A DNA stretch of 64,000 bases from positions 200,595-264,594 of the forward strand of contig CP011214.1 of the NCBI GenBank assembly GCA_001029755.1. The letters run 5' to 3'. This stretch comes from Candidatus Woesebacteria bacterium GW2011_GWF1_31_35 (GTDB lineage Bacteria > Patescibacteriota > Microgenomatia > UBA8517). Of this stretch, positions 785 to 63,456 are shown in pieces. Within the stretch, counting starts at the first letter, position 1. Every line of letters starts with the position of its first letter. Made by a program: the position numbers and the translations under genes. The notes under the pieces are model-generated. The model saw nothing but the letters and a program-made list of their open reading frames with translations, had not been told where the DNA came from and searched no databases.

Positions 785-2494
785 TTATTCTGAAGGATCA
801 ACTTCAGTATTTGAACTTCCACCAACAAATCTTTTAAATAAAGTTTTGAATGTTTCTAGTTCTTTAGATTTCATTAACACTAAACTAATTAAATAAATTG
901 AAATTCCAATTAGTCCTACAAAGATAGTTAAAATAAGTAAATTTCCAGCATATCTTGTATCTAGTACAAATTTTTCAAAAGGTAAATCAAGTGAAGAAAT
1001 GAAGGAAAGTTTTTTAACCCAAACTGATTTATCAAAAAACTTTAAAATAAAATACATTGTTGATCCAGAAATTAAACTTGAAATAAATATTTTTATTATT
1101 GGAATATATAAACTTTGCTTTGCTCCATTGTGAATTCTTTTTGTAATAAGCAAAAATAAAACAATTGATTGAATAATCGATGAAAAAGAAAAGGCGGCTG
1201 CTAAACTCCAAACCGGTAAATGCAATTTAACTACAAAAATAAAATCTAAAATTATGTTGACAAGTAAAGTAGAAATCGAAACAATTACGGGAGTTTTGGT
1301 ATCAGTTAATGCATAAAAAGATCTTGCTAATATTGAATTTATGGCTTGAGAAAAAATACCAAAAGCAAAAGCTGAAACAACTAATGAAGTTTCAACAGTA
1401 GAATCCCAAGTAAAAATATCTGTTCCAAAAATTAGCCTTACTACAGGAACCCTTGCAACCATTAAAAAAACAACGATTGGTGCCATTAAAAAAATTACTT
1501 GGTTTAAAGTTTCAAAAAGTGTCTTTTTAAAAGCTGGTAAATTATCTGCTTGCCTTGCTAAGGTGGGAAGTGCAGCTTTAGCAATTGAAGTACCAAAAAG
1601 CCCAACAGGAAGAAGTTGTATTGTGTTTCCAAAAGTAAAGAAGGTATAGGCGGGAACTGAAATTAATGAAGCCAATGTTAATTCAACGAATTTAGCAACT
1701 TGCAAAAAAGATACCTCAATTATTCTAGGTAAAGAAAGCTTGGCAATTTTTTTAACTTCTGGTGTAATTTTTAGTGAACTACTAAATCTAAAACCAAGTT
1801 TTACAGCTAAAGGTAGTTGGATTAAAAAATGAGATCCTGCACCAATAACAACACCTATGGTAGGAGCTAATAACCCAAGGTTTTTTGAAAAGAAAAATGT
1901 TGCAATTATTATTCCTAAATTATAAAAAAGAGGTGCTAAAGCAGGTACAAAAAATCGTTTTGAAGATTCCAAAACAGCAGTTAAAACATATGAAATTACA
2001 AAAAAACCCTGAGCTGCAAATAGAATTCTAGCCAAAGTCACTATTTTGTCTTGATCCGAAGGACTAAAACCTGGAGTTATAAGCTTATATAATGGATGTG
2101 CAAAAGTAATTACAACTGTTGCTAATATAACAAATAAAACGCCTCCCCAATTAGCAACCAATCCTGCAACCTCCCAAGCTTTTTTATGACCTTCAAATTT
2201 ATTTTCTTTTAATGTTTTTGTAAAGACTGGTATGAAAGCTGATGCAAAGGTCCCAAAAACCAAAACTTCAAAAATTGTATCCGGTAATCTAAAGGCCGCA
2301 AAAAAAAGACTTAAATTATCAGGAGTAAAAAAATGGGCCAACACCCTTTGACGAACCAATCCCAATAATCTTGAAGCAACTATCATTATCATTATTAAAG
2401 TTGCCGCAGATAAAACAGAATGTTGTTGACCAAAAAATAACGATTTAAATTTCTTTAAAACAAATTTTGTTTTAGTTGTTATTGTTAATTTCAC
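785..2494 (-). CDS. murJ: Lipid II flippase MurJ/MviN
   Basis: 569-aa polytopic protein. The N-terminus SAATLIMIMIVASRLLGLVRQRVLAHFFTPDNLSLFFAAFRLPDTIFEVLVFGTFASAFIPVFTK is the MurJ signature region. Confidence 0.8.
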   Translation of the reverse strand: MKLTITTKTKFVLKKFKSLFFGQQHSVLSAATLIMIMIVASRLLGLVRQRVLAHFFTPDNLSLFFAAFRLPDTIFEVLVFGTFASAFIPVFTKTLKENKFEGHKKAWEVAGLVANWGGVLFVILATVVITFAHPLYKLITPGFSPSDQDKIVTLARILFAAQGFFVISYVLTAVLESSKRFFVPALAPLFYNLGIIIATFFFSKNLGLLAPTIGVVIGAGSHFLIQLPLAVKLGFRFSSSLKITPEVKKIAKLSLPRIIEVSFLQVAKFVELTLASLISVPAYTFFTFGNTIQLLPVGLFGTSIAKAALPTLARQADNLPAFKKTLFETLNQVIFLMAPIVVFLMVARVPVVRLIFGTDIFTWDSTVETSLVVSAFAFGIFSQAINSILARSFYALTDTKTPVIVSISTLLVNIILDFIFVVKLHLPVWSLAAAFSFSSIIQSIVLFLLITKRIHNGAKQSLYIPIIKIFISSLISGSTMYFILKFFDKSVWVKKLSFISSLDLPFEKFVLDTRYAGNLLILTIFVGLIGISIYLISLVLMKSKELETFKTLFKRFVGGSSNTEVDPSE

Positions 2495-2516
2495 TTTTTT
2501 TGATTATACTACCCAC

Positions 2517-2750
2517 ATGCCAGTAACAAAAACAGCCAAAAGAGCATTACGAGGCTCAAGCAAAAAAGAGAAGGTAAATACTTTAATTTTATCTAAGCTT
2601 GGAAAAGCTTTACGTTCTGCCAAAAAGACAAAAACGAAAAAAAATATTGAAACCGCAATTTCTTTAGCTGATAAAGCAGCTAAAAAAAATACAATCCACA
2701 AAAATAAAGCTGCTAGAATCAAATCTCAGCTTTCTAAACTCCTAAAATAA
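2517..2750 (+). CDS. rpsT: 30S ribosomal protein S20
   Basis: 77-aa, very basic, alpha-helical; MPVTKTAKRALRGSSKKEKVN...AARIKSQLSKLLK follows the S20 pattern. Confidence 0.8.
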   Translation: MPVTKTAKRALRGSSKKEKVNTLILSKLGKALRSAKKTKTKKNIETAISLADKAAKKNTIHKNKAARIKSQLSKLLK

Positions 2751-2803
2751 AGATTATTAAATACTAGCTTCTAAGACAGGTTTTCATATGCTATATTTAA
2801 GCT

Positions 2804-3373
2804 ATGCCTGCTAATAAAAGAAATAAGATAAACCTTCTTCCTCAAGAAGAATTTGAAACATCTACTTTCGGTAGAATTTTAAAATGGGCACTTTCTTCTT
2901 TTAGAATAATGGTTATTGTGACCGAACTTGTAGTCATGGGGGCCTTTCTTTCTAGATTTTGGCTTGATGCAAAAAATTCTGATTTAAACGATGAATTAAA
3001 TACTAGTAAAGCTCAAGTTTCAGCATATTCGGATGTAGAATCAACAATAATATCAAATCAAAAAAGACTATCTATCGCAAAATCTCTTTACACACAAAAA
3101 AATATTAGTGAAATTATTGAAAAAATCTCCAAATCAATTCCATCAGATATATCCCTAAATTCAATTTCAATTAGTGAAGGAGTTTTAACACTTAAGGCAT
3201 CTTCCCTTTCAGAAAGATCAATTATGCAATTTTTAGTTAATCTTGACAGTGATGAAGATCTATCTGACGTAAACTTGTCGCAAGTTTCTTCGGGTGTTGA
3301 TAATAGTTACATAACAATTTTTACAATAACAGCCAATGTAAAAAGTTTCACGACACAGAAAGGAGCAAAATAA
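2804..3373 (+). CDS. PilN-like type IV pilus/competence assembly protein
   Basis: N-terminal KINLLPQEE motif followed by a single TM helix and a periplasmic domain, the PilN architecture. Assigned by sequence pattern only. Confidence 0.5.
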   Translation: MPANKRNKINLLPQEEFETSTFGRILKWALSSFRIMVIVTELVVMGAFLSRFWLDAKNSDLNDELNTSKAQVSAYSDVESTIISNQKRLSIAKSLYTQKNISEIIEKISKSIPSDISLNSISISEGVLTLKASSLSERSIMQFLVNLDSDEDLSDVNLSQVSSGVDNSYITIFTITANVKSFTTQKGAK

Positions 3374-3374
3374 T

Positions 3375-4034
3375 ATGGCAGTTGGATGGAAAAAAGATTA
3401 TTTAAGATATAAGGATTTTTTCTTAAATGTATTAAGACTTTATAAAAATAAGCCAAATTTTAAAATTTATTTGGAATTAATACTTTCTCTTTCTGCAATA
3501 GTAATCTTTTCAATTTTTGCAATTCGTCCCACAATCATTACAGTATCTGAATTAAATAAAGAAATTAAAGGAAAAGAGGAAACGGTAGCAAAATTAAAAG
3601 AAAAAATAAAAAATCTCCAAACCGCTAGTGTGAATTTGCAAAAAGAATCTGGTAGACTTCCATTAATTACTCAAGCCGTACCAGCCTTAGCAAGTCCAGA
3701 AATTTTAGTTAAACAAATTGAAACATTAGTTTCTCAAGATGGAGTTACAATACTTAGATTTTCTGCTTCAGATGTTTTATTAGTTGGTAAAAAAGAAGAT
3801 ATTAAAAAATCAAAAGATTTCGTAAGTTTATCCGGAGACGCTGATGAGCTTCCTTTTTCAATATCTGTAACTGGGCCTTACCAAAATCTTTATTCATTTT
3901 TAAAATCTGTTGAAAATTTAAGAAGGCCAGTAAAGGTTGATTCTTTTTCGATTACCTCAAGTGTTACTGATTTATCAAAAGTACTAACTTTAACAATAAC
4001 TGGAAGATTACCATTTTTGTATGAAGAAAAATAA
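3375..4034 (+). CDS. PilO-like bitopic membrane protein
   Basis: Short cytoplasmic N-terminus, one TM, a coiled-coil segment (KEIKGKEETVAKLKEKIKNLQ), then a periplasmic domain. Gene start is adjacent to the PilN-like gene. Confidence 0.4.
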   Translation: MAVGWKKDYLRYKDFFLNVLRLYKNKPNFKIYLELILSLSAIVIFSIFAIRPTIITVSELNKEIKGKEETVAKLKEKIKNLQTASVNLQKESGRLPLITQAVPALASPEILVKQIETLVSQDGVTILRFSASDVLLVGKKEDIKKSKDFVSLSGDADELPFSISVTGPYQNLYSFLKSVENLRRPVKVDSFSITSSVTDLSKVLTLTITGRLPFLYEEK

Positions 4035-4037
4035 AAT

Positions 4038-4238
4038 ATGAAAAATACTAAACTGCCTAGTGTAATAGTTCTTTTAATACTAACTTCGATTACTATTGTT
4101 TTTTGGGTATTTTTTAATATTTATTATGTTGTTTCCAAAAAGACTCCTGCTACAGTATCTGAAGAGATACTTTCTCCAATAAACCCCAAGCTTGATACAG
4201 AAGTAATCAATCAAATGGAGAAAAGAAGTTATCCTTAA
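4038..4238 (+). CDS. Small single-pass membrane protein
   Basis: 66 aa with a hydrophobic N-terminus; sits in a PilP-like position but no family could be assigned. Confidence 0.3.
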   Translation: MKNTKLPSVIVLLILTSITIVFWVFFNIYYVVSKKTPATVSEEILSPINPKLDTEVINQMEKRSYP

Positions 4239-4250
4239 AACTACTTCCCA

Positions 4251-5639
4251 ATGAAGAAAATTAAAAAATTACCAACAATTTTAGGAATATTAATTTTAAT
4301 ATCTGGTTTAGTAGCTGGAATTTTTTTAGTTAATTCTAGACAAGTTTTTAAGTTAGGAGCAAGTGCTGATTTTGCTCCAAAAAATGTAAGGGTAAGTAAT
4401 ATTACCAATAGTTCTTTAACTATTACTTGGACTACTGACAAAATAAGTAAAGGTTTTATCAAATGGGGCAAAAGCGAATCGGCTTTAAGTAAAACTACGT
4501 TGGAGGAAAATGCTGAAAAAGAATTTATTCATTCAGTAAACCTTCCAGCAATAGAACCCAATACTGATGTATTTTTTAAAATTAATTCAGAAGGTGAAGA
4601 TTTTGACAACAGTGGAATACCTTGGCAATCAAAAACATTATTAGAAAAAACAAATCAGACTAGTTCACTAACAGGATCTGGAATAATTCTTTCCCCTGAT
4701 GGGTCCAGCCCAGCAAAGGCAATTGTTTATTTATCAGTTAATGGGATAGCCCTTTCAAATTTAACCTCCCAGGAAGGTACTTGGATAATTCCAATTTCAT
4801 TGTTTATTGAATCAATTCCTGAAACAACAGTTATTGAGATTTCTGTAATTGATGGACAAGGAGGAACCGCACAAGCTGCAATTTATCCTACAACAATTAA
4901 AAATACTCCAACGATTGTTATAGGTAAAACATATGATTTTAGAAATTATGTTCCTACAGTTGACTCAAATCTTCCTGAAAGTAAACTTACAATACCTGAA
5001 ACAATAGAGATTTCATCAAGATTTGAGGTAGATAATTCAAGTCTTACTTTATCTTCAAATAATGTAGTTACATTAGATTCAATTGATGAGGGGGAAATAA
5101 TTACAACAACTGACCCTCAATTCTTCGGAACTGCACCTGCAAAAACTGGGATTGAAATTTCAGTAGAATCAGAACTTCAAACTGATTCCCTAACTTCAAG
5201 TTCAACTGGAAAATGGAGTTGGAGTCCACCTACTAATTTGGATCCAGGTCAACATACAGTGACAATTAAATGGAGAGATTCAAACGGAATTTTAAGAACC
5301 CTGACAAGAAATTTTGTAGTTCAAGCTGGTGAAGCACCCGCATTTGAAGCAACTCCTTCAGCTACACCTAACATAACCGCAACACCTACAAGTAGTGGGA
5401 TAGCAACTCCAATAACATCGCCTACTGGCACTTCTAGGAGTACTAGTATACCAACAACAATTCCATCTACCACCCCTACAATTAAAGCCAGTGGAACACC
5501 AAAAGCAACAATTTCTGCAACACCAACCAATCCTTCGCTTCCGGAATCAGGAAACTTGACACCAACCATTGGTCTATTCATAATGGGTGTAGGAATATTA
5601 ATGTCGAGTATTTTTGTTTGGAAAAGACAAGATGCCTAA
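4251..5639 (+). CDS. Cell-surface protein with Fn3-like domain and C-terminal LPESG sorting signal
   Basis: N-terminal signal/anchor, an Fn3-like segment (SLTITWTTDKISKGFIKWGKSES), Thr/Pro/Ser-rich stalk, then LPESG followed by a hydrophobic helix and a KRQDA tail. This is the LPXTG-type cell wall sorting architecture. Confidence 0.6.
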   Translation: MKKIKKLPTILGILILISGLVAGIFLVNSRQVFKLGASADFAPKNVRVSNITNSSLTITWTTDKISKGFIKWGKSESALSKTTLEENAEKEFIHSVNLPAIEPNTDVFFKINSEGEDFDNSGIPWQSKTLLEKTNQTSSLTGSGIILSPDGSSPAKAIVYLSVNGIALSNLTSQEGTWIIPISLFIESIPETTVIEISVIDGQGGTAQAAIYPTTIKNTPTIVIGKTYDFRNYVPTVDSNLPESKLTIPETIEISSRFEVDNSSLTLSSNNVVTLDSIDEGEIITTTDPQFFGTAPAKTGIEISVESELQTDSLTSSSTGKWSWSPPTNLDPGQHTVTIKWRDSNGILRTLTRNFVVQAGEAPAFEATPSATPNITATPTSSGIATPITSPTGTSRSTSIPTTIPSTTPTIKASGTPKATISATPTNPSLPESGNLTPTIGLFIMGVGILMSSIFVWKRQDA

Positions 5640-6747
5640 AGATAATAATCAAACACCAATTACACCAACCACCAACAGCGATGATCAATCACCTGTTTTC
5701 ATGGAAGAAACCCTTCCTCCAATGCCACAAGAAGCACCTATAACTCAAGATATGGCTCCAGTAGAAAATAAACAGGATACAAAACCAAACGAAACCCCAG
5801 TTGAAACTCCAATTGTGGATTCAGGTTCAGCTGCACCTCAAGACGATGCAATAATGCCTCCAACGGTAACATCAAAAAATAAAAAAAAGTTTGCAGGAGG
5901 AAAAGTAATCGCAACAATTTTAGGGCTTTTTCTTTTAATTGGTGGTATAGGAGCAGGAGTTTTATTAGTTAAACAAAATCAAAATATAAATGAAAAGGCT
6001 TGGACACAGCAAACTTGTGAAAGTCAGGATGCTATTTTATGCCCTCTTCCTGACTATCAAGCTACCTACGAGGCAGGCAGAGCAAATAATGTTGGTATTT
6101 TAGAAGAATGTTATTGCAAATATATTGGTGGAGGTGGAGGTAGTGGAAATACAGATAATCCGACTTCAGGAACATGTCCAAATGGCAATCCTTTTAACAA
6201 TGAATGTGTAATTATTTATTGTCCAAATGGAGACACAAACAATGATGGAGCTTGTGAGGTACCAGATGTTGGTGCATGGTATGGATCAAAACACACATGT
6301 GGAACAAAAACATTTGGAACTAATGAATGTGGACAAGTTGATCCTGTTGATGATAATGGTGTTTATTGCGAATTACCCGGTTGGGATTACGACATAAAAT
6401 TAAGTAATTGTTCTGGACCTTTACCACCAACCACACCACCTACAGACAATTCAGGTACTGCATCATGTTCAGATGTTAAGGCATATACAGAAAGTTGGGT
6501 TTTGATCCCACAGATTAATCTTCCAAGTCTAAATGTTGGGGATAAAATAAATTTATGTGTTACTGGTACTTCAACTGGAGGAAGTTTTGATATGGCAAGA
6601 TTTAAAGTTAATGGAGTTACCCTACCAGATACAACAACTATAAGGCCTGGATCAAATGATTATTGTTATCTTTACACTATTCCAACAGGAACAAGCACAT
6701 TTAACATAATAGGTCAAATCCATCATACAAGTCTAGGATGGAAATAA
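5614..6747 (+). CDS. Membrane-anchored Cys-rich secreted protein
   Basis: Pro-rich N-terminal region, one TM (VIATILGLFLLIGGIGAGVLLV), then about 24 Cys in Gly/Asn-rich repeats. The start may instead be the ATG at 5632. Confidence 0.45.
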   Translation: MFGKDKMPKDNNQTPITPTTNSDDQSPVFMEETLPPMPQEAPITQDMAPVENKQDTKPNETPVETPIVDSGSAAPQDDAIMPPTVTSKNKKKFAGGKVIATILGLFLLIGGIGAGVLLVKQNQNINEKAWTQQTCESQDAILCPLPDYQATYEAGRANNVGILEECYCKYIGGGGGSGNTDNPTSGTCPNGNPFNNECVIIYCPNGDTNNDGACEVPDVGAWYGSKHTCGTKTFGTNECGQVDPVDDNGVYCELPGWDYDIKLSNCSGPLPPTTPPTDNSGTASCSDVKAYTESWVLIPQINLPSLNVGDKINLCVTGTSTGGSFDMARFKVNGVTLPDTTTIRPGSNDYCYLYTIPTGTSTFNIIGQIHHTSLGWK

Positions 6748-6759
6748 ATTATAAATAAT

Positions 6760-7395
6760 ATGAAAAATAAATTATCAACAATAGTAATAATATTAGTAAC
6801 GATAATTTTAGCTGGAGTTGCAATTTTTACTGCCATTAGATTGTATCAAACAAGAAATACTTCTGTTGCACCTAACGCCCCTTCAAGTAAACCAGAAGCA
6901 TATGGAGGGTCTTGTAGTTTATCTTTTACCTTAGCAACACCTACCAGTACAGCCTCAGGTACAGCTATAGCAACTGCTACAAGTACGGCCACATCGACTG
7001 CTACATCAACTTCAAGAGCGACAAGTACTGCTACATCAACTGCTACATCAACTTCAAGAGCGACAAGTACTGCTACATCAACTGCTACAGCTACAGCAAC
7101 AAGTACAGCCTCAGGACAACCAAACTCTTGTAATGGAACTTGTGGATCAAATAGTAATTGTAGTTCTGGACTATTTTGCTATTCAGGTTATTGTAGAAAT
7201 TCTTCTTGTCCTACAGATACAGATTGTGTGTGTAATGGAACAGCTACACCAACAAGTACATCTACTTCTATTGCACAAGGACCAACATCAACATCAGAGC
7301 CACAACTCCCAGAAGCAGGAACATCATGGCCAACAATTCTTGGTACTGGATTTGGAATATTTATTATTCTAGGTGCACTTCTATTGGCACTTTAA
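6760..7395 (+). CDS. Thr/Ser-repeat surface protein with Cys-rich module and C-terminal LPEAG plus hydrophobic anchor
   Basis: N-terminal TM, (ATSTATSTATSTSR)n repeats, Cys-rich block (CNGTCGSNSNCSSGLFCYSGYCRNSSCPTDTDCVC), then LPEAG and a hydrophobic tail. Confidence 0.55.
   Translation: MKNKLSTIVIILVTIILAGVAIFTAIRLYQTRNTSVAPNAPSSKPEAYGGSCSLSFTLATPTSTASGTAIATATSTATSTATSTSRATSTATSTATSTSRATSTATSTATATATSTASGQPNSCNGTCGSNSNCSSGLFCYSGYCRNSSCPTDTDCVCNGTATPTSTSTSIAQGPTSTSEPQLPEAGTSWPTILGTGFGIFIILGALLLAL
6991..7100 (+). repeat. Tandem 42-bp in-frame direct repeat (acaagtactgctacatcaactgctacatcaacttcaagagcg) inside the surface-protein gene
   Basis: Two perfect copies (7021-7062 and 7063 onward) and one partial copy, encoding TSTATSTATSTSRA units. 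Confidence 0.6.
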
Positions 7396-9821
7396 CGCCA
7401 ACTTGGAAACCAATAATAACTTCTATCTAACCATTCAGGAATTTTAAGTCCTATCCAATGTGGATAGAAATAAATAAAAAGAAGTAGTGTAATTGTAAAA
7501 ATAGGAATAATTGTTTTTGGAAAACGGCGCAAGATAAATCCTGTTGCTATTGTCAAAAATGGAATAGATGGTAGGTAATGATATAGAAACATAATTCTAG
7601 GAGATGCAATCCAGGGAACAAAAAAAATAAGGTAAGAAAATATAATAAATCCCAATTTCTTGTTTCTTTCTTTTGCTGAAATGAAAAATGAAAGTATTAT
7701 AGAAAATAATCCAAACCAAAAAACTGCAGGGTTTCCAAAAGCATAAATTCTTGAAACAAATTCCTTAGTTTCAGGGCCATTATAAAGATAAATAGGACGA
7801 ACAAGCATTGGCCAAGTATAAGCAGGCGAAGTATAAGGATGTTCTGCTCTTAAATTAGTGTGATACCACCACATTTGTTTTTGCACTTCAATGAAGTTTT
7901 CCCAACTATGACCCGTTTTAAACATTATTCCATAACTTGCAATATAAATTGCAATTGGAATAATAAGAAAAGATAGATAAGATATTTTTAATTTCTTTTT
8001 AAAAACAAAATGAGAAACAAAAAATATTGGTAATGTATAAATTGCAGACCACTTGGATGCAATTGCTAGACCAAACACAACTGACGAAAGAAAGTTTTTA
8101 TCTTTTAAGAAAAGGAGAATTGAAAGAAGTGAAAAAAACAAAAGGTATGAGTCATTCATTCCTATCCTACTCATTACTAAAACCAAACCATCAAGTGAAA
8201 AAATTGCTGAAGATAAAATTCCTACAAGCCTGTCCTTAAAAACTAAACTTGCAATCAAATAGACTAAAAGTACCGATCCAACACCCAAAATTGCTTGAAC
8301 AATTCTCCACCCAAATGCATTTTCTCCAAAGATAATCATTCCAAGGGTCATTCCTAGTTTTGCAACAGGTGGGTGAGTCCATTCATATGCAAATCCTTCA
8401 GGATGTGGATTCCACCACTCCCAAGCCTTAGGATCACCATGAAGCACTAACCCAGCAGTAAAAGCATGGTAGACTTCGTCAAAGTATTTTTCTTTTGGAA
8501 GATTTAAAGAATAAATTCTTGTAATAATTGAAAAAAATAAAATACCTAAAAGTAAAATCCTAGCTTTTTTACCTGAAATATCTTTTCCAAAATAATTAAT
8601 TTGTGATTTAACTTTATTTAATTTTAGCCTGAATAAGTCTTCGTATTTAAACGAAAATTTAATTTTTTTAAATTGAGAGATGATAAAAAATAATAACAAT
8701 GAGAGATTTGTAATGATAAAAAATTTGATAATTACTGGATTAAAAATTTCTTTAAAATTATCAGTTATCCAATAGTAAGAATAAGATAAATTAGCAAGAT
8801 AAGTAAAGGAAAATCCTGCATATACAACTAATACAACAGGGTTAGCTAATGAGGCTAAAAGAAGTGGTGCCAAGATTGGCAACAAATGTCTTTCATGCAT
8901 CCTAGTTAAAAACAGAAAAGAAACAAGAAGAGAAATTGCTGAAATTGTATACTCTAATCCCCCTTTCTTTCTTAATAAAAAAAGAACAATGACAATTAAT
9001 AAACAACTGATTCCTGCCCCAATCCAAAAAGATATATTATCAGGTTTCCAAAAATCAAAAAGTCCCCAAAAAGAAAATGCATTTACTGACCCATATGGAT
9101 ATTGGCTAGCTGAAACAGAAAGTCTTTTTAGAATAAACTCAAAAATGTTAGAAGTATTATTAAAAGGAATAAATCCAAATATAAAAACTACTAAACCAGA
9201 AATTATAAAGAATATAATTTCTTTTCCTTTCCATTTATTTTTTATAATTAAATATAAAATTCCAGGTAAGATAAATGCCGCCTGTGGTTTAATTAATGTT
9301 CCAATTGCAAGAATAATTGCAGAGAAAACCTTTTTATTTTTAGATGCCAGATAAACTGCCAAAAGTGAGAAAAATGCAGTTAATGAATCAACTTGTCCCC
9401 AAAGAGAAGAATTAGCAAAAACTGCAGGGTTAAAAAGATAAATTAAAGATAGAATTATTCCCCATTTTTTTACACTTAAATTATTGGCAATTTTATAAAT
9501 TAAATAACCAGTTCCCATATCAGCTAAGATTGCAGGTAATTTAAATAAAATAACCTGAAAAGCTGGAATTAGATTTAATTTTCCTAAAAGCCAAAGTATA
9601 TAAAGATACCCTGGTAGATAATCAGACCAACCAGAATAAAAATTATTAAGACCATTTTGTACTAATGAATTACTCCAAGCAACGAATGTTCCATGATCTA
9701 ATTGTAGTGTCCCAAAATTAGCTAAAAATAATCTTAACGCAAAGGCAGAAAAAATTATTAAGATAATGTTAAAATCAATGTAATGAAAATTAATAACAAA
9801 TTTTTTAAAAATATTTTTCAT
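7392..9821 (-). CDS. Tandem-fused GT-C glycosyltransferase (PMT/GT39-like, two modules)
   Basis: 809-aa polytopic protein. The C-terminal module carries the PMT-type motif KYFDEVYHAFTAG and loop NPHPEGFAYEWTHPP. The N-terminal half is a second polytopic GT-C-like module. Confidence 0.6.
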   Translation of the reverse strand: MKNIFKKFVINFHYIDFNIILIIFSAFALRLFLANFGTLQLDHGTFVAWSNSLVQNGLNNFYSGWSDYLPGYLYILWLLGKLNLIPAFQVILFKLPAILADMGTGYLIYKIANNLSVKKWGIILSLIYLFNPAVFANSSLWGQVDSLTAFFSLLAVYLASKNKKVFSAIILAIGTLIKPQAAFILPGILYLIIKNKWKGKEIIFFIISGLVVFIFGFIPFNNTSNIFEFILKRLSVSASQYPYGSVNAFSFWGLFDFWKPDNISFWIGAGISCLLIVIVLFLLRKKGGLEYTISAISLLVSFLFLTRMHERHLLPILAPLLLASLANPVVLVVYAGFSFTYLANLSYSYYWITDNFKEIFNPVIIKFFIITNLSLLLFFIISQFKKIKFSFKYEDLFRLKLNKVKSQINYFGKDISGKKARILLLGILFFSIITRIYSLNLPKEKYFDEVYHAFTAGLVLHGDPKAWEWWNPHPEGFAYEWTHPPVAKLGMTLGMIIFGENAFGWRIVQAILGVGSVLLVYLIASLVFKDRLVGILSSAIFSLDGLVLVMSRIGMNDSYLLFFSLLSILLFLKDKNFLSSVVFGLAIASKWSAIYTLPIFFVSHFVFKKKLKISYLSFLIIPIAIYIASYGIMFKTGHSWENFIEVQKQMWWYHTNLRAEHPYTSPAYTWPMLVRPIYLYNGPETKEFVSRIYAFGNPAVFWFGLFSIILSFFISAKERNKKLGFIIFSYLIFFVPWIASPRIMFLYHYLPSIPFLTIATGFILRRFPKTIIPIFTITLLLFIYFYPHWIGLKIPEWLDRSYYWFPSWR

Positions 9822-11003
9822 AGTTTCTTTTCAAAAAACAATTTTATATTAATTCCATTATTAATATTTTTTGGAATTTTATTAATATACAAAAATATAT
9901 ATCCTAATCCAAGAAATTGGTATGATCATTATTTATATCTATCAAAATCTCTAATACATGGCTGTGTCGATATACCAGATCTACCTGTATTTTATCACGA
10001 TAAATTAGAATTTAATGGTAAAACTTATATCCCTTTTCCACCAGGAGCATCTTTGGTTTTAATCCCGTTTATTTTACTTAAAGAGAGTATCACGCAACAA
10101 CAAGTATCAATATTGATAGGAAGCTTAGACATCTTATTAATATACTTATTACTTTTAAATTTTACCAATAAAAAGAATGCAATTATTCTCTCTATTTTTT
10201 TAGGATTGGGGACCTCATTTTTTTGGTCAGCTGTAGTTGGAACTACATGGTTTTTTGCCCACGTTGTCTCAATATTCTTTATAACAATTTCATTGATTTT
10301 ACATTTCAATAAAAAACATTTTCTCTCAGGAATTTTCTTTGCTCTCGCTGCACTAACCCGTATTCCAATGGTTCTGGCTGGTATATTTTACTTGTTACAA
10401 TTACTTAAACGAAAGAAAGATTTCATTTACTTCTTAATAGGGGCTTTTATTTTTATTCCAATTTTATTTTTCTATAACTGGGCAAGATTTGGTAATTTTT
10501 TAAAAACAGGATATAACGAGGTTTATCTGCAATATGCAAATTCTAATTACCCTTATACAATAAGGCAAATAATAAACCCCAAATCAACTCTTTATGGATA
10601 CTTTGATATCAAAAATATTCCTATGCATCTATACACATTTTTTATTATGCCACCCGATATCAATATATCTGGGAGAATTGTTAAAGAAATAAAACCTTCA
10701 CCTTTTGGAATGGGAATTTTATTTACTTCTCCACTTCTATTTATTGCATTAAAACCAAAATTTAAAAAAGGTTTGGAACTAAATTCAATAATAACAGCCC
10801 TAATTGTGGCTGTCCCAAGTTTTTTACATATTATGCAAGGCTGGGTTCAATTTGGATACAGATTTGTTTTGGATTTTATAGTTTTTTTGATGATTATATT
10901 GGCACTTCGTTTTAAACCAACAAAATTAAATCTACTATTAATATTAATCTCAATTATAGTAAACTTTTGGGGAGTTATATGGGCAATAAATTTAGGTTGG
11001 TAA
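9783..11003 (+). CDS. GT-C family membrane glycosyltransferase (ArnT/PMT_2-like)
   Basis: 406-aa polytopic protein. Shares a C-terminal motif (QFGYRF..DF..FLM...N.WGV) with the next gene. Confidence 0.45.
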   Translation: MKINNKFFKNIFHSFFSKNNFILIPLLIFFGILLIYKNIYPNPRNWYDHYLYLSKSLIHGCVDIPDLPVFYHDKLEFNGKTYIPFPPGASLVLIPFILLKESITQQQVSILIGSLDILLIYLLLLNFTNKKNAIILSIFLGLGTSFFWSAVVGTTWFFAHVVSIFFITISLILHFNKKHFLSGIFFALAALTRIPMVLAGIFYLLQLLKRKKDFIYFLIGAFIFIPILFFYNWARFGNFLKTGYNEVYLQYANSNYPYTIRQIINPKSTLYGYFDIKNIPMHLYTFFIMPPDINISGRIVKEIKPSPFGMGILFTSPLLFIALKPKFKKGLELNSIITALIVAVPSFLHIMQGWVQFGYRFVLDFIVFLMIILALRFKPTKLNLLLILISIIVNFWGVIWAINLGW

Positions 11004-12139
11004 CAATTTTCATTCCACTTATTATTTTAATAATATATTTTCTTTCTTCTGCTGGAAAAACACCATTTAATCACTTTACATTGCTTGCAGATTCTTTCTT
11101 AAAAGGACATTTATATATCGAAGGGGATTATCCTTGGCTCGAAAAAATTCCCATTGGTGACAATAAATTTTATGTAGCTAATCCTCCAATGCCAGCTATT
11201 CTCGCTATACCTTTTGTTTTTTTCTCAAATAAAAATTTCCCTCAACAGTATATTTCTCACATATTAGGTATGGGAATAATCGGATTAACAATGATTATGG
11301 CATATAGAATTAAAAAGAAATTAAGTTTAATGATTTGGTCAGGATTATTAATTGGACTAGGTTCCATAGTATGGTTTTTATCTTCAGTCGGTTCAGTTTG
11401 GTATCTTGGTCAAATTACCTCAGCATTCTTTTTAACTTGGGCATTAGTCGAAATATTAGGTAAATCAAGGCCAATATTACTAGGAATATTATTGGGCGCT
11501 ACCTTTCTTTCAAGAAGTCATGTTGCCTTAACTTTTCCGTTTATTGTCTTTATGAATTGGGAAAAGTTTAAAAATTTAAAACATTTAAACATATTAATTT
11601 TAGTTTTTTCAATCTTTGCCAGTTTTGGATTTTGGTATAACTTTGTAAGACTTGGAAATCCTTTTGACAATGGTTACAATCTGATTCCTGATGTCAGTAT
11701 ATCATCTTGGTTTGCTCAGGGTCTTTGGAACCCAATATATATACCCAAAAACTTTGATATATTATTTCTAAAAATGCCAGTAATTACAAATACTTTTCCT
11801 TATATTGTCCCATCTCTTGCTGGGATGTCTATAATTCTTACTACTCCTGCTTTTATTCACTCTTTCTTTGCTTCAATAAAAGATATCATCACAAAATTAT
11901 CGTGGATTTCCATTTTAATAATATTATTTATAGTATCCTCGCATGGTGGAACAGGATTCACACAATTCGGATATCGCTTTGCGGTTGACTTTTACCCCTT
12001 TTTAATGTTGCTTACAATTAAGGGTGTGGCCGAACACAACGGACCAAAATGGCACCACTGGTTGTTACTTATTATTTGTATAATTGTAAACACTTGGGGA
12101 GTATTATTTATTAATAAATTTGGCTGGGTAGGTTGGTAG
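10967..12139 (+). CDS. GT-C family membrane glycosyltransferase, tandem paralogue
   Basis: 390-aa polytopic protein with TQFGYRFAVDFYPFLM...NTWGVLFINKFGW, paralogous to the preceding ORF. The two overlap by 37 nt in different frames. Confidence 0.45.
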   Translation: MGSYMGNKFRLVTIFIPLIILIIYFLSSAGKTPFNHFTLLADSFLKGHLYIEGDYPWLEKIPIGDNKFYVANPPMPAILAIPFVFFSNKNFPQQYISHILGMGIIGLTMIMAYRIKKKLSLMIWSGLLIGLGSIVWFLSSVGSVWYLGQITSAFFLTWALVEILGKSRPILLGILLGATFLSRSHVALTFPFIVFMNWEKFKNLKHLNILILVFSIFASFGFWYNFVRLGNPFDNGYNLIPDVSISSWFAQGLWNPIYIPKNFDILFLKMPVITNTFPYIVPSLAGMSIILTTPAFIHSFFASIKDIITKLSWISILIILFIVSSHGGTGFTQFGYRFAVDFYPFLMLLTIKGVAEHNGPKWHHWLLLIICIIVNTWGVLFINKFGWVGW

Positions 12140-14003
12140 CGGTTTTTAAAATTAAAATTCCATTCTTATCATAAACAACCGGATAATCAAATCTTAATTT
12201 TTCTTCATTTATTAGATATTCTCTTCTTTCCCATCCACTTATATAAATGTAATTTATCCCAAATTTCTTTATCAGCTCTTTGTATCCATCTCTTGCATCG
12301 AAAATTGCCAAGATCGCCATTTCTTTATCAGTCGTATCAGTAATCCCGTGTGTCCACAAATAACCACCAAATCCTAGAAATATTTTACGACCAGATAAAG
12401 CAGTTATTATATTATTTGAGTTTCTTGCCGTTAGAAAAATCTCATTGGGACGACTGATCTCTCTAATTTCTTCGGCAATTATTAAATCATTTCTTTTAAA
12501 TATTCCACCGAGCATCCTTGGATCATTAATTGAAATTAGAATACCGGTAACGACTGATAAAAATAAAAAGCAGTAACCTAAAATTTTAACTACAATTATT
12601 TTACTTTCAATCAATTTAATTATTAAATATGAAGCTAAAATTGAAATCATTATATAAGGGTACAAAACAAATCTACTGTTGTCCCAAACATATGGCTGAA
12701 AGATAATTATATTAGCTAGAAATATAATAAATACGTTTACTAAAATAATGTTTCTATTTTTAAATATCTTTTTAAAAAACAACATTACTGATATTATTGA
12801 CCCAAACAAAAAAGGAATACCAAAATTAGTCAAATAGAAAAACAATTTATTATAAGTTCCATCAACAGGCGGCCATTCTGAAAAAGAAAATCTAATAAAG
12901 CTTTTAGATCCTAATGAAGTGAATATTACAGGTAAGATAAAGGCTCCGGAAACAATAAATATTAATAAGCCATATTTAATCCAAAAAAATAATTCTGATA
13001 TTTTTTTAGCTTTTATAGTTTCCGATACAACAACAAACAGAAGCGCTAAAGCAAAAACCAAAAAGGCATAAATATTTGCATATGGTAATAAACCTGCTAT
13101 AAATGCGCTTATAGCAAAGATTCTTAAATTTGTCTTATTGTTTATTAAAAGTATTAATAAATATGTAGCAAAAATCCAAAGTGGTACCCCCACAAGCAAA
13201 GTTCTTTGGGCCATAAGCATTTCGGCAAATATACCAGCATACCCAACGCCTAACTGAGGAAGGTAGGAGAAACGGGTCGTGGCATTGATATAAGTAGACA
13301 AAGGTAATTCATCTAATATAGGTTTTGTAAAACCTAATCCGCCATTAAAAAGAAACAAGAATACTGAAAGATAAGATGCCCTATTATTATTTAATATTTT
13401 AAAAGCCAATAAATAGAGGGAATTAACTAAGAGTAAACCAAAAATGGTAGAGGGAATAATTAGTGAATATCGTAATCCAGAACCTAAGACTAATAATTGA
13501 GCTGAAACAAAGTCAGCAACAAAATGATAATTAATGGTTTTAAAAGAAGCAATTGGGTTGATCGGAGGAAAATTATCTCCATAGGCGAAATTACTAATTA
13601 ACCCTAAATGAAAGGGTAAATCACCACTCGTCGAGGGACTACCGCTTAAATAAGATTCACCAGATTTTAAATGAGTTTGACTTATCACCAAACCAAAACA
13701 GATTAGCCAAAAAATATTAAACAATATATATCCTTTATCAAAACTTATTTTTAATTTGTAATTCTTAAACGTAAATAAATAAAGAGATATTCCACTAAGA
13801 AGCGTTATCCAAGTTGACATTTTGATAGAAAAGATATGACTCAAATAAAAAGATAATAATGCGTTTATTAAGATTCCGGTAAGCATAGAAAAAAATAACA
13901 ATTCTTTTGTATTTAAATGCTTTTGTTTAAAAAGTTTAAACAAAACAGTGAAACCTAAACAAAATGAGGATAGAAAATAAATAGATATATATACAAAACT
14001 CAT
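12111..14003 (-). CDS. Large polytopic membrane protein with C-terminal extracytoplasmic domain (putative GT-C glycosyltransferase)
   Basis: 630 aa: about 12 predicted TM helices followed by a roughly 170-aa soluble domain. It sits among the GT-C genes and the LCP gene. Confidence 0.35.
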   Translation of the reverse strand: MSFVYISIYFLSSFCLGFTVLFKLFKQKHLNTKELLFFSMLTGILINALLSFYLSHIFSIKMSTWITLLSGISLYLFTFKNYKLKISFDKGYILFNIFWLICFGLVISQTHLKSGESYLSGSPSTSGDLPFHLGLISNFAYGDNFPPINPIASFKTINYHFVADFVSAQLLVLGSGLRYSLIIPSTIFGLLLVNSLYLLAFKILNNNRASYLSVFLFLFNGGLGFTKPILDELPLSTYINATTRFSYLPQLGVGYAGIFAEMLMAQRTLLVGVPLWIFATYLLILLINNKTNLRIFAISAFIAGLLPYANIYAFLVFALALLFVVVSETIKAKKISELFFWIKYGLLIFIVSGAFILPVIFTSLGSKSFIRFSFSEWPPVDGTYNKLFFYLTNFGIPFLFGSIISVMLFFKKIFKNRNIILVNVFIIFLANIIIFQPYVWDNSRFVLYPYIMISILASYLIIKLIESKIIVVKILGYCFLFLSVVTGILISINDPRMLGGIFKRNDLIIAEEIREISRPNEIFLTARNSNNIITALSGRKIFLGFGGYLWTHGITDTTDKEMAILAIFDARDGYKELIKKFGINYIYISGWERREYLINEEKLRFDYPVVYDKNGILILKTATNLPSQIY

Positions 14004-15052
14004 AAAATATGATTATTTAACCACTCTTGAAAATCTTTCCAACTACCAGACTTTGGAATAAATACATATTGGTAATCATACTTTTTTAAATTTTGAGAGA
14101 TTTCTAAAAACTTTTCTGGGATTGAAAAGAAATTTATTTTGTTTCTAGATTCAAAGACCAATCTTCCCAATATTAGTAAAGACTTATTATCTAAATTAGT
14201 TTCTACATGAGAAAAGGTAATATCATAAATTTCTTTTAATTTTAAGGGGTTTAATATTATTTCTTTTGATAAAACTTTTTCCTTTATAGCACTAATAACT
14301 TTTTGTTGACGAATTTCTCTTGCCAAATCTGTTCCTTCCAGACCTTCTGAATTTCTACTTCTCACAAATTTTAATGCAGTTTCTCCATCCATTTTAGTAA
14401 CACCTTTTTCAAAAGAAACAGTTTCATATCTACAAGCATATGTTTTGGTTAAAGATAAATTTTGCTTATCATCTTCACATAGATCATTCTCTTTACCCGC
14501 AATTGGATACTTTGAATCTGTAAAGGAATTTTCAACCATCACATTTATTCCACCCAATGTATTTATCAAGTCTTTAAACAAAGAAAAATCTACAACTACT
14601 GTGTATGAAATTGGTATACTTGTTATTTCCTCTATACTTGTATTAACAAGTTCGAAATTATTATTAGATTTTTGTTTTCCCCAATAGTAAGCACTATTTA
14701 ATTTAGCGCGAATTGCAGGTACCCAAACATCTCTAGGAAGAGATAGTATATTTACTTTTTTTGAATTTTGGGAAAGAAATGCAATCATCATTGTATCTGT
14801 TAAATCAGGAGCCGTGTGGCCTTCTCCACCTTTACCTAAAATTAAAATTGATGTGATTCCATTTGAAGATTTAATATTTCCATAATCAAATTTAGAAAAA
14901 AAGATTGATCTTAAAACTAAGAAAAAGATAATTGGCAAAACTACCAAAATGACTAAAAATACCAGGACAACTTTATACTTACCCATGTTACTATTGTATT
15001 TGTTATGAACAACACAAGCAATATTATCAAAAGAGCCAATCAATTCACTCAC
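14000..15052 (-). CDS. LytR-CpsA-Psr (LCP) family cell-wall glycopolymer ligase
   Basis: N-terminal TM then ILILGKGGEGHTAPDLTDTMMIAFL...NILSLPRDVWV...DFSLFKDLINTLGGINV...DGETALKFVRSR, the LCP catalytic-domain pattern. The real start is probably the internal MGKYKVV. Confidence 0.8.
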   Translation of the reverse strand: MSELIGSFDNIACVVHNKYNSNMGKYKVVLVFLVILVVLPIIFFLVLRSIFFSKFDYGNIKSSNGITSILILGKGGEGHTAPDLTDTMMIAFLSQNSKKVNILSLPRDVWVPAIRAKLNSAYYWGKQKSNNNFELVNTSIEEITSIPISYTVVVDFSLFKDLINTLGGINVMVENSFTDSKYPIAGKENDLCEDDKQNLSLTKTYACRYETVSFEKGVTKMDGETALKFVRSRNSEGLEGTDLAREIRQQKVISAIKEKVLSKEIILNPLKLKEIYDITFSHVETNLDNKSLLILGRLVFESRNKINFFSIPEKFLEISQNLKKYDYQYVFIPKSGSWKDFQEWLNNHIL

Positions 15053-15100
15053 CTGTGGACCAAAAATGAAATTGAGTTTGTTACAAACAATATAAAGAAA

Positions 15101-61526: not shown

Positions 61527-61533
61527 TTTTTAG

Positions 61534-63447: not shown

Positions 63448-63456
63448 ATTTTTTTA

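Follow-up and report, generated by a model that had tools for sequence, protein, structure and literature searches.

The six genes at positions 2804-7395 of the window, by which we mean the whole 64-kb stretch of DNA from an uncultivated, ultra-small Candidatus Woesebacteria member (Microgenomates, candidate phyla radiation) that was analyzed, form a tight plus-strand operon. This operon is probably a conserved envelope module, in which PilN and PilO are accompanied by four envelope proteins, two of them with sortase-type sorting signals, and which may serve as a wall-linked part of the pilus envelope complex. The six open reading frames (ORFs) that the original prediction placed in this interval are all present there on the plus strand, and they are listed below with their features and with the gene that follows them.

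2804..3373, +, PilN, 189 aa (Pfam PF05137, 6.2e-12, 45.8 bits versus a cutoff of 22.8)
2825-2842, +, KINLLP of PilN, residues 8-13, a PilM-binding-type N-terminal motif (from the sequence)
2876-2962, +, single transmembrane helix (TM) of PilN
3375..4034, +, PilO, 219 aa (Pfam PF04350, 5.7e-10, 39.9 bits versus a cutoff of 22)
3465-3524, +, single TM of PilO
4038..4238, +, 66-aa single-pass membrane protein of no known family
4251..5639, +, 462-aa surface protein with fn3, Pur_ac_phosph_N and Big_13 matches (Pfam)
residues 7-27 of the 462-aa protein, +, N-terminal TM
residues about 44-128, 142-229 and 282-357, +, its three beta-sandwich domains
residues 364-429, +, its disordered Thr/Ser/Pro linker
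5538-5552, +, its LPESG, 28 residues from the end
5553-5621, +, its hydrophobic helix, 23 residues
5622-5636, +, its KRQDA tail
5614/5632..6747, +, Cys-rich type II membrane protein, 377 aa if begun at the TTG (5614), 371 aa if begun at the ATG (5632)
5905-5970, +, its internal TM, residues 98-119
from 6466, +, its conserved C-terminal domain of ~95 aa, ending HHTSLGWK
6760..7395, +, 211-aa stalked surface protein
6772-6837, +, its conserved N-terminal TM
6937-7113, +, its Thr/Ser/Ala repeat, including a 42-nt tandem repeat at 6979-7089
7129-7233, +, its 8-Cys module, CNGTC...DCVC
7306-7320, +, its LPEAG, 24 residues from the end
7321-7392, +, its hydrophobic C terminus, 24 residues, without a basic tail
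7392..9821, -, protein O-mannosyltransferase (PMT)-family membrane enzyme, 809 aa, GT87 + PMT (Pfam PMT_4TMC 3.9e-20, PMT_2, PMT)

Composition and conservation of the operon

In the type IV pilus machine, PilN and PilO serve as membrane "alignment" proteins. In the window proteins both domains exceed the curated thresholds and each protein has one N-terminal TM; PilO also gives a weak GspM match in NCBIfam, and the INLLP of PilN is retained in all syntenic homologs. The 66-aa protein has a conserved helix, KLP[SN]..ILT.IT..FWV, and an ILSPI[ND]P.LD motif, and counterparts of 65-127 aa occupy the same position in L004, L007, L008, L018, L019, and L021. The 462-aa protein has generic FnIII folds, and neither sequence nor structure comparison revealed a resemblance to PilP or to secretin domains. 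In the Cys-rich protein, a Pro-rich N-terminal tail of ~95 aa, presumably cytoplasmic, precedes the TM, and the conserved C-terminal domain follows a variable middle region rich in Cys (the protein has 15 Cys in all); it matches no Pfam family, carries neither a sorting signal nor a C-terminal anchor, and has syntenic homologs in L004, L007, L008, L019, and L021. In the AlphaFold2 model of the 211-aa protein the Cys module has a pLDDT of about 95 and the remainder is disordered, the top Foldseek matches being knottins at nonsignificant values (E of at least 0.56). The original description of three large secreted proteins thus needs amending, since the Cys-rich protein is membrane anchored on its N-terminal side and the 211-aa protein is not large.

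The intergenic gaps are 1-12 nt, or the genes overlap, and a scan of 2400-7700 gave no terminator-like site. The association of PilN/PilO with the surface proteins, for which the original prediction proposed a comparison with related genomes, is conserved: the order MurJ (minus strand), rpsT, PilN, PilO, small TM protein, protein with three Fn3 domains, Cys-rich protein, and Thr/Ser-Cys protein recurs in seven of eight related contigs that were examined (L004, L006/L007, L008, L019/L020, and L021), the eighth, L018, stopping upstream of the later operon genes. This order is kept at identities as low as 35-44%, with three additional genes ahead of the Cys-rich gene in L008. The surface-protein genes are single copy in most loci examined, the exception being an expanded 211-aa family in L021, and between the window and the three closer loci (L004, L007, and L008) their products show 51-64% identity, compared with 49-56% for PilN/PilO. 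Such strict synteny of surface-protein genes with PilN/PilO across distant relatives is new and suggests that the module is a wall-anchored envelope component rather than a set of variable adhesins.

It is less probable, if still worth weighing, that these proteins are ordinary wall-anchored adhesins for attachment to a host or surface, which have only a promoter in common with pilN/pilO and play no mechanical part in the pilus machine. This was the view of the original prediction. A Thr/Ser/Pro stalk that bears Ig/FnIII-like domains and ends in a sorting signal is a typical Gram-positive adhesin architecture, the best structural matches include bacterial repeat adhesins (4p99, 5irb, and SiiE), there is a weak Ca_tandemer match in NCBIfam, and adhesin families often show the kind of paralog expansion seen in L021. 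However, the genes are mostly single copy in a fixed order with PilN/PilO, the surface proteins have diverged as much as PilN/PilO and not faster, and both TM helices are strongly conserved. Moreover, pilN/pilO lie apart from the other pilus genes yet still beside these four: the pilus locus of a complete Microgenomates genome comprises PilM, B, C, D, T, and pilins, with PilN/O unlisted (PMC7143001), and our 64-kb window contains no pilM, pilB, pilC, or pilin genes (45 ORFs, Pfam) and no class III (prepilin) signal in any frame. Because the genes are mostly single copy, strictly syntenic, and similar to PilN/PilO in divergence, a conserved envelope component fits better than a variable adhesin.

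Sorting signals of the 462-aa and 211-aa proteins

The proposal that the LPESG and LPEAG tails are sortase-type sorting signals is supported by their conservation in register in 118 of 120 homologs of the 462-aa family and in 141 of 150 homologs of the 211-aa family. Each protein has a single N-terminal hydrophobic helix as a candidate export signal, although these helices are conserved to the same degree as the folded domains, more than is usual for a signal peptide that is cleaved. AlphaFold2 places the C-terminal helices at residues 436-458 and 190-210, respectively, and a Kyte-Doolittle scan is also hydrophobic after the motif. The helix that was said to follow the motif immediately is indeed present, but a 5-residue spacer (NLTPT / TSWPT) lies between the two. 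The motif exceeds what chance would give. Among 62 candidate window ORFs, selected by length and not by gene prediction, only these two combine a single-pass topology with xPxxG and a C-terminal helix. Among 687 six-frame ORFs from the window and related loci, the combination was limited to the two families and one antisense artifact, with a filter that missed a small protein encoded next to the sortase gene, the tail of which after the G exceeds the limit used. Of the curated models, Pfam PF00746 (Gram_pos_anchor) matched the 211-aa protein only, below its cutoff (E = 0.062, 13.7 bits versus 20), and no NCBIfam LPXTG or CTERM anchor model matched either protein at an E of ≤1.

Homologs of the 462-aa protein share xPxxG, a hydrophobic helix, and a basic tail (118/120), with K or R in the tail of all 118 motif-bearing sequences; the charged KRQDA tail reported for the window protein is present. 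TPETG (73 sequences) is far ahead of VPETG (16) and LPESG (6). T occupies position 4 in 104 (88%), and roughly 85% have T or V at position 1, the latter preference being new. The motif and spacer form the best-conserved stretch of the family (0.81-0.84 versus 0.64-0.73 for the folded domains), and we regard the 462-aa protein as a likely sortase substrate.

The 211-aa family is large (934 representative clusters at an E of ≤1e-3). Among 150 representatives chosen at ≤50% mutual identity, 141 bear [LIV]Px[ASTV]G, followed in 120 of them by exactly 24 residues beyond the G. Position 4 of these 141 motifs is A in 69, S in 51, T in 16, and V in 5 (A/S, 85%), and K or R occurs within the last 8 residues of only 8 members; the window protein ends in LLLAL. 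A signal dominated by A/S and devoid of a tail is new, and the balance tips slightly toward the 211-aa protein being a sortase substrate as well.

LPETG is the classical sorting signal of Staphylococcus aureus protein A, and the X position of LPXTG is free. The original prediction called the E at X noncanonical, which it is not because X is free. The S or A that it noted at the T position is real, but S is a minority in the 462-aa family, where T prevails, and LPxAG and LPxSG are rare natural variants in staphylococci (PMC3436756, PMC7137321).

A sortase in the same genome and the wall context

As the original prediction had remarked, no sortase gene is visible in the 64-kb window, either by Pfam scans of the 45 largest ORFs, which left out 17 small ORFs under about 125 aa, or by tblastn of the whole window with a C-terminal sortase fragment. 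A sortase is encoded outside the window, P0242 (227 aa), which matches positions 1-123 of the 125 in Pfam PF04203 (3.7e-10, 40.1 bits versus a cutoff of 26.6) and has an N-terminal hydrophobic segment. The exact P0242 sequence and the exact window proteins occur in the same NCBI genome records (AKM83244.1 with AKM83041.1, and UR17_C0001G0453 with G0233), and therefore the objection that the genome might lack a sortase falls away. The catalytic residues H146, C209 (within LILYTCE), and R217 are invariant in 27 sequences. The gene is about 220 genes from the operon in the complete genome and about 8 kb downstream in a 778-kb contig that matches the operon at 100% identity; L002 carries both operon and sortase gene. 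P0242 reached none of the curated sortase classes A-F of NCBIfam (best SrtD, 22.8 bits versus a cutoff of 140; classes C, D, and E, 14-19 bits versus cutoffs of 160-165), and no sortase relative in the PDB was detectable by sequence or profile.

The MurJ gene adjoins the operon, and an LCP gene and two FemAB-family genes lie 7-12 kb downstream (Pfam), with which a Gram-positive-like wall is consistent. The sortase and the Gram-positive-like wall inferred by the original prediction thus agree with the genome, but both are already published for this group: sortase is "near ubiquitous in Microgenomates" (PMC6744442), a complete Microgenomates genome with a separate pilus locus also has one (PMC7143001), and sorted proteins had been predicted in other candidate phyla (PMC3812714). 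Since the enzyme that would read the tag is encoded elsewhere in the same genome, the overall system is a variant of a known one and not a new one. The PMT-family gene, convergent with the operon, is a conserved neighbor in L004, L006/L007, L008, and L019, and its product is a candidate for glycosylating the Thr/Ser stalks.

We think it unlikely that the tail-less LPx[A/S]G signal with 24 residues is a separate class read by a second sortase or another enzyme. The contrast within one operon is marked (T 88% at position 4 and a basic tail versus A/S 85%, no tail, and a fixed 24 residues), and a few distant matches of the 211-aa search bear a canonical LPKTG with KKFKLI. Yet all 886 matches to the sortase query belong to one sortase family, a count that does not enumerate paralogs per genome, and the sortase has as its genomic neighbor a gene for a small secreted protein with PV[EN][TA]G, a helix, and a basic tail at its end. 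Position 4 of this likely dedicated substrate therefore switches between A and T, and one relaxed enzyme could read both signals.

Still less probable is that the C-terminal helices are plain membrane anchors and that xPxxG is a helix-capping or turn motif left unprocessed by sortase. Such anchors would suit the lack of a basic tail and the scarcity of T at position 4 in the 211-aa family, the curated sorting-signal models, none of which attains its threshold, and the position of the sortase gene, which is not adjacent to the operon. Nevertheless, the pentapeptide is in a fixed register and is the best-conserved part of the protein, a disordered linker resembling a wall spanner always precedes it, and a sortase with an intact triad is found in the same genomes, near ubiquitously in Microgenomates (PMC6744442), next to a gene whose product bears a similar motif with T and A alternating. 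Lastly, the 462-aa protein is very unlikely to be a subunit of a Gram-positive-type, sortase-polymerized pilus: Ig-like domains, the sorting signal, and, in some homologs, a YPK-like string (A[VI]IYPK) in domain 2 speak for it, but Lys follows YP in only 30/69 homologs and is T in the window protein, the 64 kb contain no sortase, NCBIfam class C scores are far under the cutoff, the ~65-residue disordered linker ahead of the motif is unlike pilins, and the pili of these phyla are of type IV and not of the sortase type (PMC3812714).

Relation to known systems

The Woesebacteria signals resemble those of Firmicutes sortase A in having a pentapeptide followed by a ~20-residue helix near the C terminus, a Pro/Thr/Ser-rich wall-spanning linker upstream, an N-terminal export segment, and, on the 462-aa protein, a basic tail; likewise, the genome encodes a His/Cys/Arg Cys-transpeptidase and FemAB-type cross-bridge enzymes. 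They differ by the T or V at position 1 in about 85% of the 462-aa family and by the A/S (85%) at position 4, the missing basic tail, and the fixed 24-residue end of the 211-aa family, while the enzyme carries ILYTC in place of TLxTC and matches none of the curated classes. Substrates of Clostridioides difficile sortase B carry (S/P)PXTG motifs and, like TPETG and VPETG here, keep P-x-T-G behind a non-Leu position 1; the sortase lineages are nevertheless unrelated, and the Woesebacteria motif strongly prefers E at position 3. The sortase substrate GspA of Actinomyces oris (Wu et al. 2014) is reportedly glycosylated, with an LCP-family enzyme taking part in its processing. Both neighborhoods combine a sortase-anchored protein with LCP-family and glycosylation enzymes, and the Thr/Ser-rich regions would suit O-glycosylation, but there is no homology, and it is the neighboring PMT-family and LCP genes that suggest glycosylation in Woesebacteria.

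In diderm pilMNOPQ systems, PilP and the secretin PilQ link the inner-membrane platform to the outer layers and to peptidoglycan. The Woesebacteria operon is similar to the type IVa version in that pilN-pilO is followed by envelope-protein genes in one operon and in that PilN keeps INLLP. It lacks an upstream pilM, however, the proteins encoded downstream resemble PilP/PilQ in neither sequence nor fold, the organism has no outer membrane, and any connection to the wall would be covalent, via sortase.

Proposed mechanism and implications

We infer that both signals are cleaved by one sortase, that the two proteins become attached to the wall, and that their stalks are glycosylated. Our current working model is that Sec would export each protein via its N-terminal hydrophobic segment and that the C-terminal helix would retain it in the membrane. 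The divergent sortase (His146, Cys209 in LILYTCE, and Arg217) would then cut between position 4 (T/S/A) and Gly and move the protein onto the peptide cross-bridge of lipid II, presumably built by the FemAB-family enzymes encoded 10 kb downstream, which would result in covalent attachment to peptidoglycan. The disordered Thr/Ser/Pro linker just ahead of the motif would span the wall and is a possible O-glycosylation target of the neighboring PMT-family enzyme.

We likewise infer that the four proteins form, with PilN/PilO, the wall-linked part of a pilus envelope complex and are not free-standing adhesins. Judged on gene order, a functional link between the surface proteins and the PilN/PilO machine has about an even chance of being real. 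A bolder and rather improbable reading is that the four genes supply the missing outer envelope part of the type IV pilus in wall-bearing, single-membrane bacteria of the candidate phyla, with the 462-aa protein as a strut, and at the same time reveal a distinct sorting class. If this were true, the 462-aa protein, held in the membrane by its unusually conserved N-terminal helix and fixed by sortase to peptidoglycan at its other end, would do the job of PilP, PilQ, and the peptidoglycan-binding domains of diderms, and the tail-less LPx[A/S]G signal with its 24 residues would represent a distinct and widespread sorting class, present in 934 representative clusters.

The operon in the window and in other records

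Six plus-strand open reading frames (ORFs), spaced by 1-12 nt or overlapping, occupy positions 2804-7395 of the window, and no terminator-like site was found within positions 2400-7700.

Genes of the operon, in order (window 2804-7395)
PilN, 189 aa, +; Pfam PF05137 (6e-12), with the KINLLP motif at residues 8-13
PilO, 219 aa, +; Pfam PF04350 (6e-10)
Small membrane protein, 66 aa, +; single-pass, no family in Pfam and NCBIfam searches
462-aa protein, +; fn3, Pur_ac_phosph_N and Big_13 matches; C-terminus LPESG, 23 hydrophobic residues, KRQDA
Cys-rich protein, 371/377 aa, +; no family in Pfam and NCBIfam searches
211-aa protein, +; Thr/Ser-repeat; C-terminus LPEAG, 24 hydrophobic residues, charged tail absent

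The ORFs, the Pfam matches and the tail sequences confirm, with small corrections, what had first been read from the DNA, namely a PilN/PilO-like pair followed by three large secreted proteins, two of them with LPE[S/A]G tails. The Cys-rich protein is not simply secreted: by sequence, a Pro-rich N-terminal tail of ∼95 residues precedes a membrane helix, a Cys-rich part and a conserved C-terminal domain, and the protein has no C-terminal anchor.

The window has a G+C content of ∼30% and includes dnaA and dnaN. An identical 462-aa protein is encoded on many contigs, among them GCA_000989325.1 and a 778-kb JGI contig, under the source names Candidatus Woesebacteria bacterium GW2011_GWC2_31_9 and RIFOXYC1_FULL_31_51. 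The 778-kb contig (L002) is 100% identical to the window across the whole operon, up to and including the stop of the 211-aa gene (window 7394/7395; L002 13145 onward), after which it carries genes for a LysM-M23 peptidase, AAA_14, Rho, a 918-aa membrane protein and a sortase in the place where the window has a PMT gene. Either the strains differ by a rearrangement that breaks precisely where the operon ends, or an assembly is chimeric. In GCA_000989325.1 (LBOE01000003.1), 113 nt are absent from the 211-aa gene (window 7162-7274; positions 12911-12913 of that record), between the Cys module and the LPEAG motif, so that this record leaves the gene unannotated and has an antisense ORF of 106 aa in its stead; the cause is probably either a collapsed assembly or a true difference in length. 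The exact 211-aa sequence does not occur in a 15-billion-protein collection, but JGI does call the gene on the 778-kb contig.

Conserved C-terminal signals

A search with the 462-aa protein returned 376 matches, and in 118 of the best 120 xPxxG precedes a closely similar helix (sLTPTiGLFIMGIGiLlSS) and a basic tail. Among these 118, TPETG (73) predominates, ahead of VPETG (16), LPESG (6), TPVTG (4), LPDSG (3), LPETG (2) and others; T occupies position 4 in 104 of them, S in 13 and A in 1, and E occupies position 3 in 99. This glutamate, at the X position, had been called non-canonical, wrongly, as it is that of the classical LPETG of protein A. The motif and the next five residues form the best-conserved stretch of the protein, with a majority fraction of 0.81-0.84, compared to 0.64-0.73 in the folded domains and 0.35 in the linker.

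The 211-aa family comprises 934 representative clusters in an exhaustive HMMER search (E<=1e-3). Among the best 150, [LIV]Px[ASTV]G is present in 141, with A (69), S (51), T (16) or V (5) at position 4; exactly 24 residues follow the glycine in 120, and only 8 have Lys or Arg near the C-terminus. Where the spacer contains WP (64 sequences), LLLAL is the commonest ending (28/64). Within the window, only the 462-aa and 211-aa proteins bear such a tail on a single-pass protein, and among 687 six-frame ORFs from the window and related loci it is likewise restricted to these two families. Given the homologue counts and this restriction, both tails are conserved and stereotyped C-terminal signals rather than chance strings. 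Signals of the exosortase, archaeosortase or rhombosortase type were considered and dropped, the motif being LPxxG-like, no such NCBIfam model matching and a true sortase being present.

A divergent sortase in the same genomes

A Pfam match revealed a sortase gene ∼8 kb downstream of the operon on the 778-kb contig, and the full 227-aa protein was recovered from a metagenome contig through an exact DNA match. The protein covers the whole PF04203 domain (3.7e-10, 40 bits against a cutoff of 26.6), and 27 aligned homologues all retain His146 (AAHR), Cys209 (LILYTCE) and Arg217. The 64-kb window itself yielded no sortase in Pfam searches of its 45 largest ORFs or in tblastn with the C-terminal fragment of the enzyme; a search of the window for the TLxTC pattern gave no match either, which is uninformative because the sortase of this lineage has ILYTC. 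Exact-sequence look-ups placed the sortase in the same NCBI genome records as proteins of the window, by accession (AKM83244.1 with AKM83041.1 and AKM83038.1; KKP23075.1 with KKP23270.1) and by locus tag (UR17_C0001G0453 with G0233 and G0230; A2422_00170 with A2422_03635); it is further present on GCA_000989165.1 and GCA_003508925.1. Because these records are shared, the case that would have told against the original prediction, a genome without any sortase, is not what was found.

The enzyme is divergent in sequence. The strict TLxTC pattern of sortases is replaced by ILYTC, the curated NCBIfam class A-F models all scored far under their cutoffs, and PDB sequence and profile searches detected no relative of solved structure. 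A 60-aa fragment of the sortase used as query returned only a 70%-identical fragment. Scanning a genome collection with the full sortase gave six related loci, the window's own assembly not among them. Two are titled Woesebacteria and four (L012, L014, L015 and L016) are titled as "uncultured Gammaproteobacteria" or "Pseudomonadales" metagenome-assembled genomes, titles that probably result from mislabelled or contaminated binning.

The immediate neighbor of the sortase, in the window's species and in three of the six related loci, is a small secreted two-Cys protein that ends in PVNTG, PVETG or PVEAG, a helix and a basic tail, and that is probably a dedicated sortase substrate. It has 87-130 aa and a conserved C.QV.QYGG.VG.VCG segment, and its gene directly follows that of the sortase.

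Genes of the sortase-neighbor protein on four sortase contigs
L010, 1502-1810
L012, 6735-6998
L013, 4539-4931
L014, 4954-5295

Predicted structures of the surface proteins

The AlphaFold2 model of the 462-aa protein (mean pLDDT 79, domains >90) runs from an N-terminal helix through three beta-sandwich domains and a disordered Thr/Ser/Pro stretch (∼65 residues) to the motif and a C-terminal helix. Fold searches for PilP-, secretin- or pilin-like domains in this model gave only generic FnIII/Ig matches. In the 211-aa model, a confident Cys module of ∼40 residues (pLDDT ∼95) is flanked on either side by disordered Thr/Ser stalks, and its top fold matches are inhibitor cystine knots such as EETI-II, a likeness that is a hint only, since these matches are not significant (E>=0.56). 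The module has eight cysteines (window 7129-7233; C-x3-C-x5-C-x5-C-x4-C-x4-C-x5-C-x-C) and hundreds of candidate-phyla proteins contain one or two copies of it; its best matches, plant and spider knottins, are non-significant. It may be a bacterial surface-displayed cystine-knot domain.

The N-terminal helix regions of the three surface proteins (window 4251-4380, 5905-5990 and 6760-6900) are conserved like folded domains, a degree of conservation uncommon in signal peptides that are cleaved, and in each protein a Gln-rich stretch and a conserved Ala follow the helix (LVNSRQVFKLGA, LVKQNQNINEKA, LYQTRNTSVAPNA). A similar ILG..LLI.G..AGV helix is common to the 462-aa and Cys-rich proteins.

Gene neighborhood and synteny

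A MurJ gene lies shortly upstream of the operon, and one LCP-family and two FemAB-family genes follow 7-12 kb downstream of it; together they are the set of genes expected for a Gram-positive-like wall that has peptide cross-bridges. The original prediction of such a wall, and of a sortase, was correct, and neither is new since sortases were already reported in this group: they are reported from over half of candidate phyla radiation genomes and as "near ubiquitous in Microgenomates" (PMC6744442), and other candidate phyla were described in 2013 as having sortases and predicted LPXTG proteins (PMC3812714). The original interpretation as a whole is partly supported, and the kind of system was already known.

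Related loci, obtained via homologues of the 462-aa and 211-aa proteins, share the order MurJ(-), rpsT, PilN, PilO, small membrane protein, triple beta-sandwich protein, Cys-rich protein and at least one member of the 211-aa family. Of eight related contigs examined, seven (L004, L006/L007, L008, L019/L020 and L021) have the full order, and L018 ends before the downstream genes. A gene for a PMT-family O-mannosyltransferase is the conserved convergent neighbor of the operon and closes the set on the minus strand where the contig reaches that far (L004, L006/L007, L008 and L019/L020; L021 and L018 end earlier); putative O-glycosylation of the stalks by this enzyme is a reasonable proposal. The order is kept down to 35-44% identity, the deviations being three inserted genes in one locus and a paralogue expansion in another. 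Compared with the window, PilN is 51-56% identical in the three closer loci (L004, L007 and L008), PilO 49-51%, the 462-aa protein 51-58%, the 211-aa protein 56-64% and the Cys-rich protein 44-45%; the surface proteins, with values near those of PilN and PilO, are thus not hypervariable. Both membrane helices of the 462-aa protein are conserved to the same degree as its folded domains.

Between the PMT-family and LCP genes, window 9783-14003 encodes three large polytopic membrane proteins (406, 390 and 630 aa) with no Pfam family, the first two of which are kept in place across related loci; all three may represent envelope enzymes, similar to glycosyltransferases, that have not been described before. 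A free-standing LAGLIDADG-family ORF (window 15005-15856, +, 283 aa, PF14528 8.6e-9) lies between the LCP gene and that of a UvrD-type helicase and overlaps both. In L004, L006/L007 and L019 the helicase gene directly follows the LCP gene with no such ORF between, and the ORF has the appearance of a homing-endonuclease insertion particular to the strain; a further two LAGLIDADG_1 ORFs are located upstream of the sortase locus (L023 and L024). Just past dnaA/dnaN, on the minus strand (57692-63954), a possible type IV secretion/conjugation-like cluster encodes a 637-aa VirB4/TraG-type ATPase (P-loop_TraG 8.7e-32, AAA_10), a 931-aa protein that carries an M23 peptidase domain at its C-terminus and two membrane proteins that match no family.

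A possible link to type IV pili

Type IV pili are believed to play a central part in how candidate phyla radiation bacteria attach to hosts. Pfam searches of the 45 largest ORFs found no pilM, pilB, pilC, pilT or pilD in the 64 kb, and a six-frame pattern search of the window found no prepilin-type signal. A complete Microgenomates genome has a sortase and a pilus locus for which PilM, B, C, D, T and pilins are listed, but not PilN/O (PMC7143001), which fits PilN/O being encoded apart from the pilus locus, with the four envelope genes. The fixed gene order and the matched evolutionary rates suggest that the four envelope proteins work with PilN/PilO in a pilus envelope complex, a proposal to which we give an even chance, and in which the 462-aa protein may be a membrane-to-wall tether. 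That the surface proteins are instead free-standing adhesins, as was first suggested, is less likely in our view.

Proposed attachment to the cell wall

We consider it likely that the 462-aa protein is a sortase substrate attached to peptidoglycan, and lean slightly toward the same reading for the 211-aa protein, for which our confidence is lower because its tail departs further from the classical signal. The disordered linkers of both proteins would span the wall. Proteins with LPxAG and LPxSG are known in staphylococci (PMC3436756; PMC7137321). A separate enzyme for the tail-less signal would match the missing basic residues of the 211-aa family and is unlikely; the PV[EN][TA]G tails of the sortase-neighbor protein show T and A alternating at position 4 in a likely dedicated substrate. 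Plain membrane anchoring appears improbable: conservation in the 462-aa protein peaks at the motif itself. Sortase-polymerised pili of the Gram-positive kind are rejected as highly improbable, because the lysine of YPK is not conserved.

What is new lies in the motif and in the genomic association alike. We found no description in the literature of the A/S-dominated position 4, lost basic tail and fixed 24-residue end of the 211-aa family, of T/V at position 1 in the 462-aa family, or of the linkage of these surface-protein genes to pilN-pilO. A strict LPXTG search, as in earlier surveys (PMC3812714), would miss most of both families, and [T/V/L]PE[T/S]G together with LPx[A/S]G provides a defined sorting motif to be used in its place. 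The specificity of the divergent sortase could be measured, and the enzyme might serve protein ligation. Should the pilus link be wrong, these would be ordinary sortase-anchored surface proteins in a lineage already known for sortases; if it holds, the conserved genes that accompany PilN/PilO could account for the anchoring of a pilus machine in a thick wall where no secretin is present. The locus thereby gives testable material on the way in which ultra-small, host-dependent members of the candidate phyla radiation make their surface and pili.
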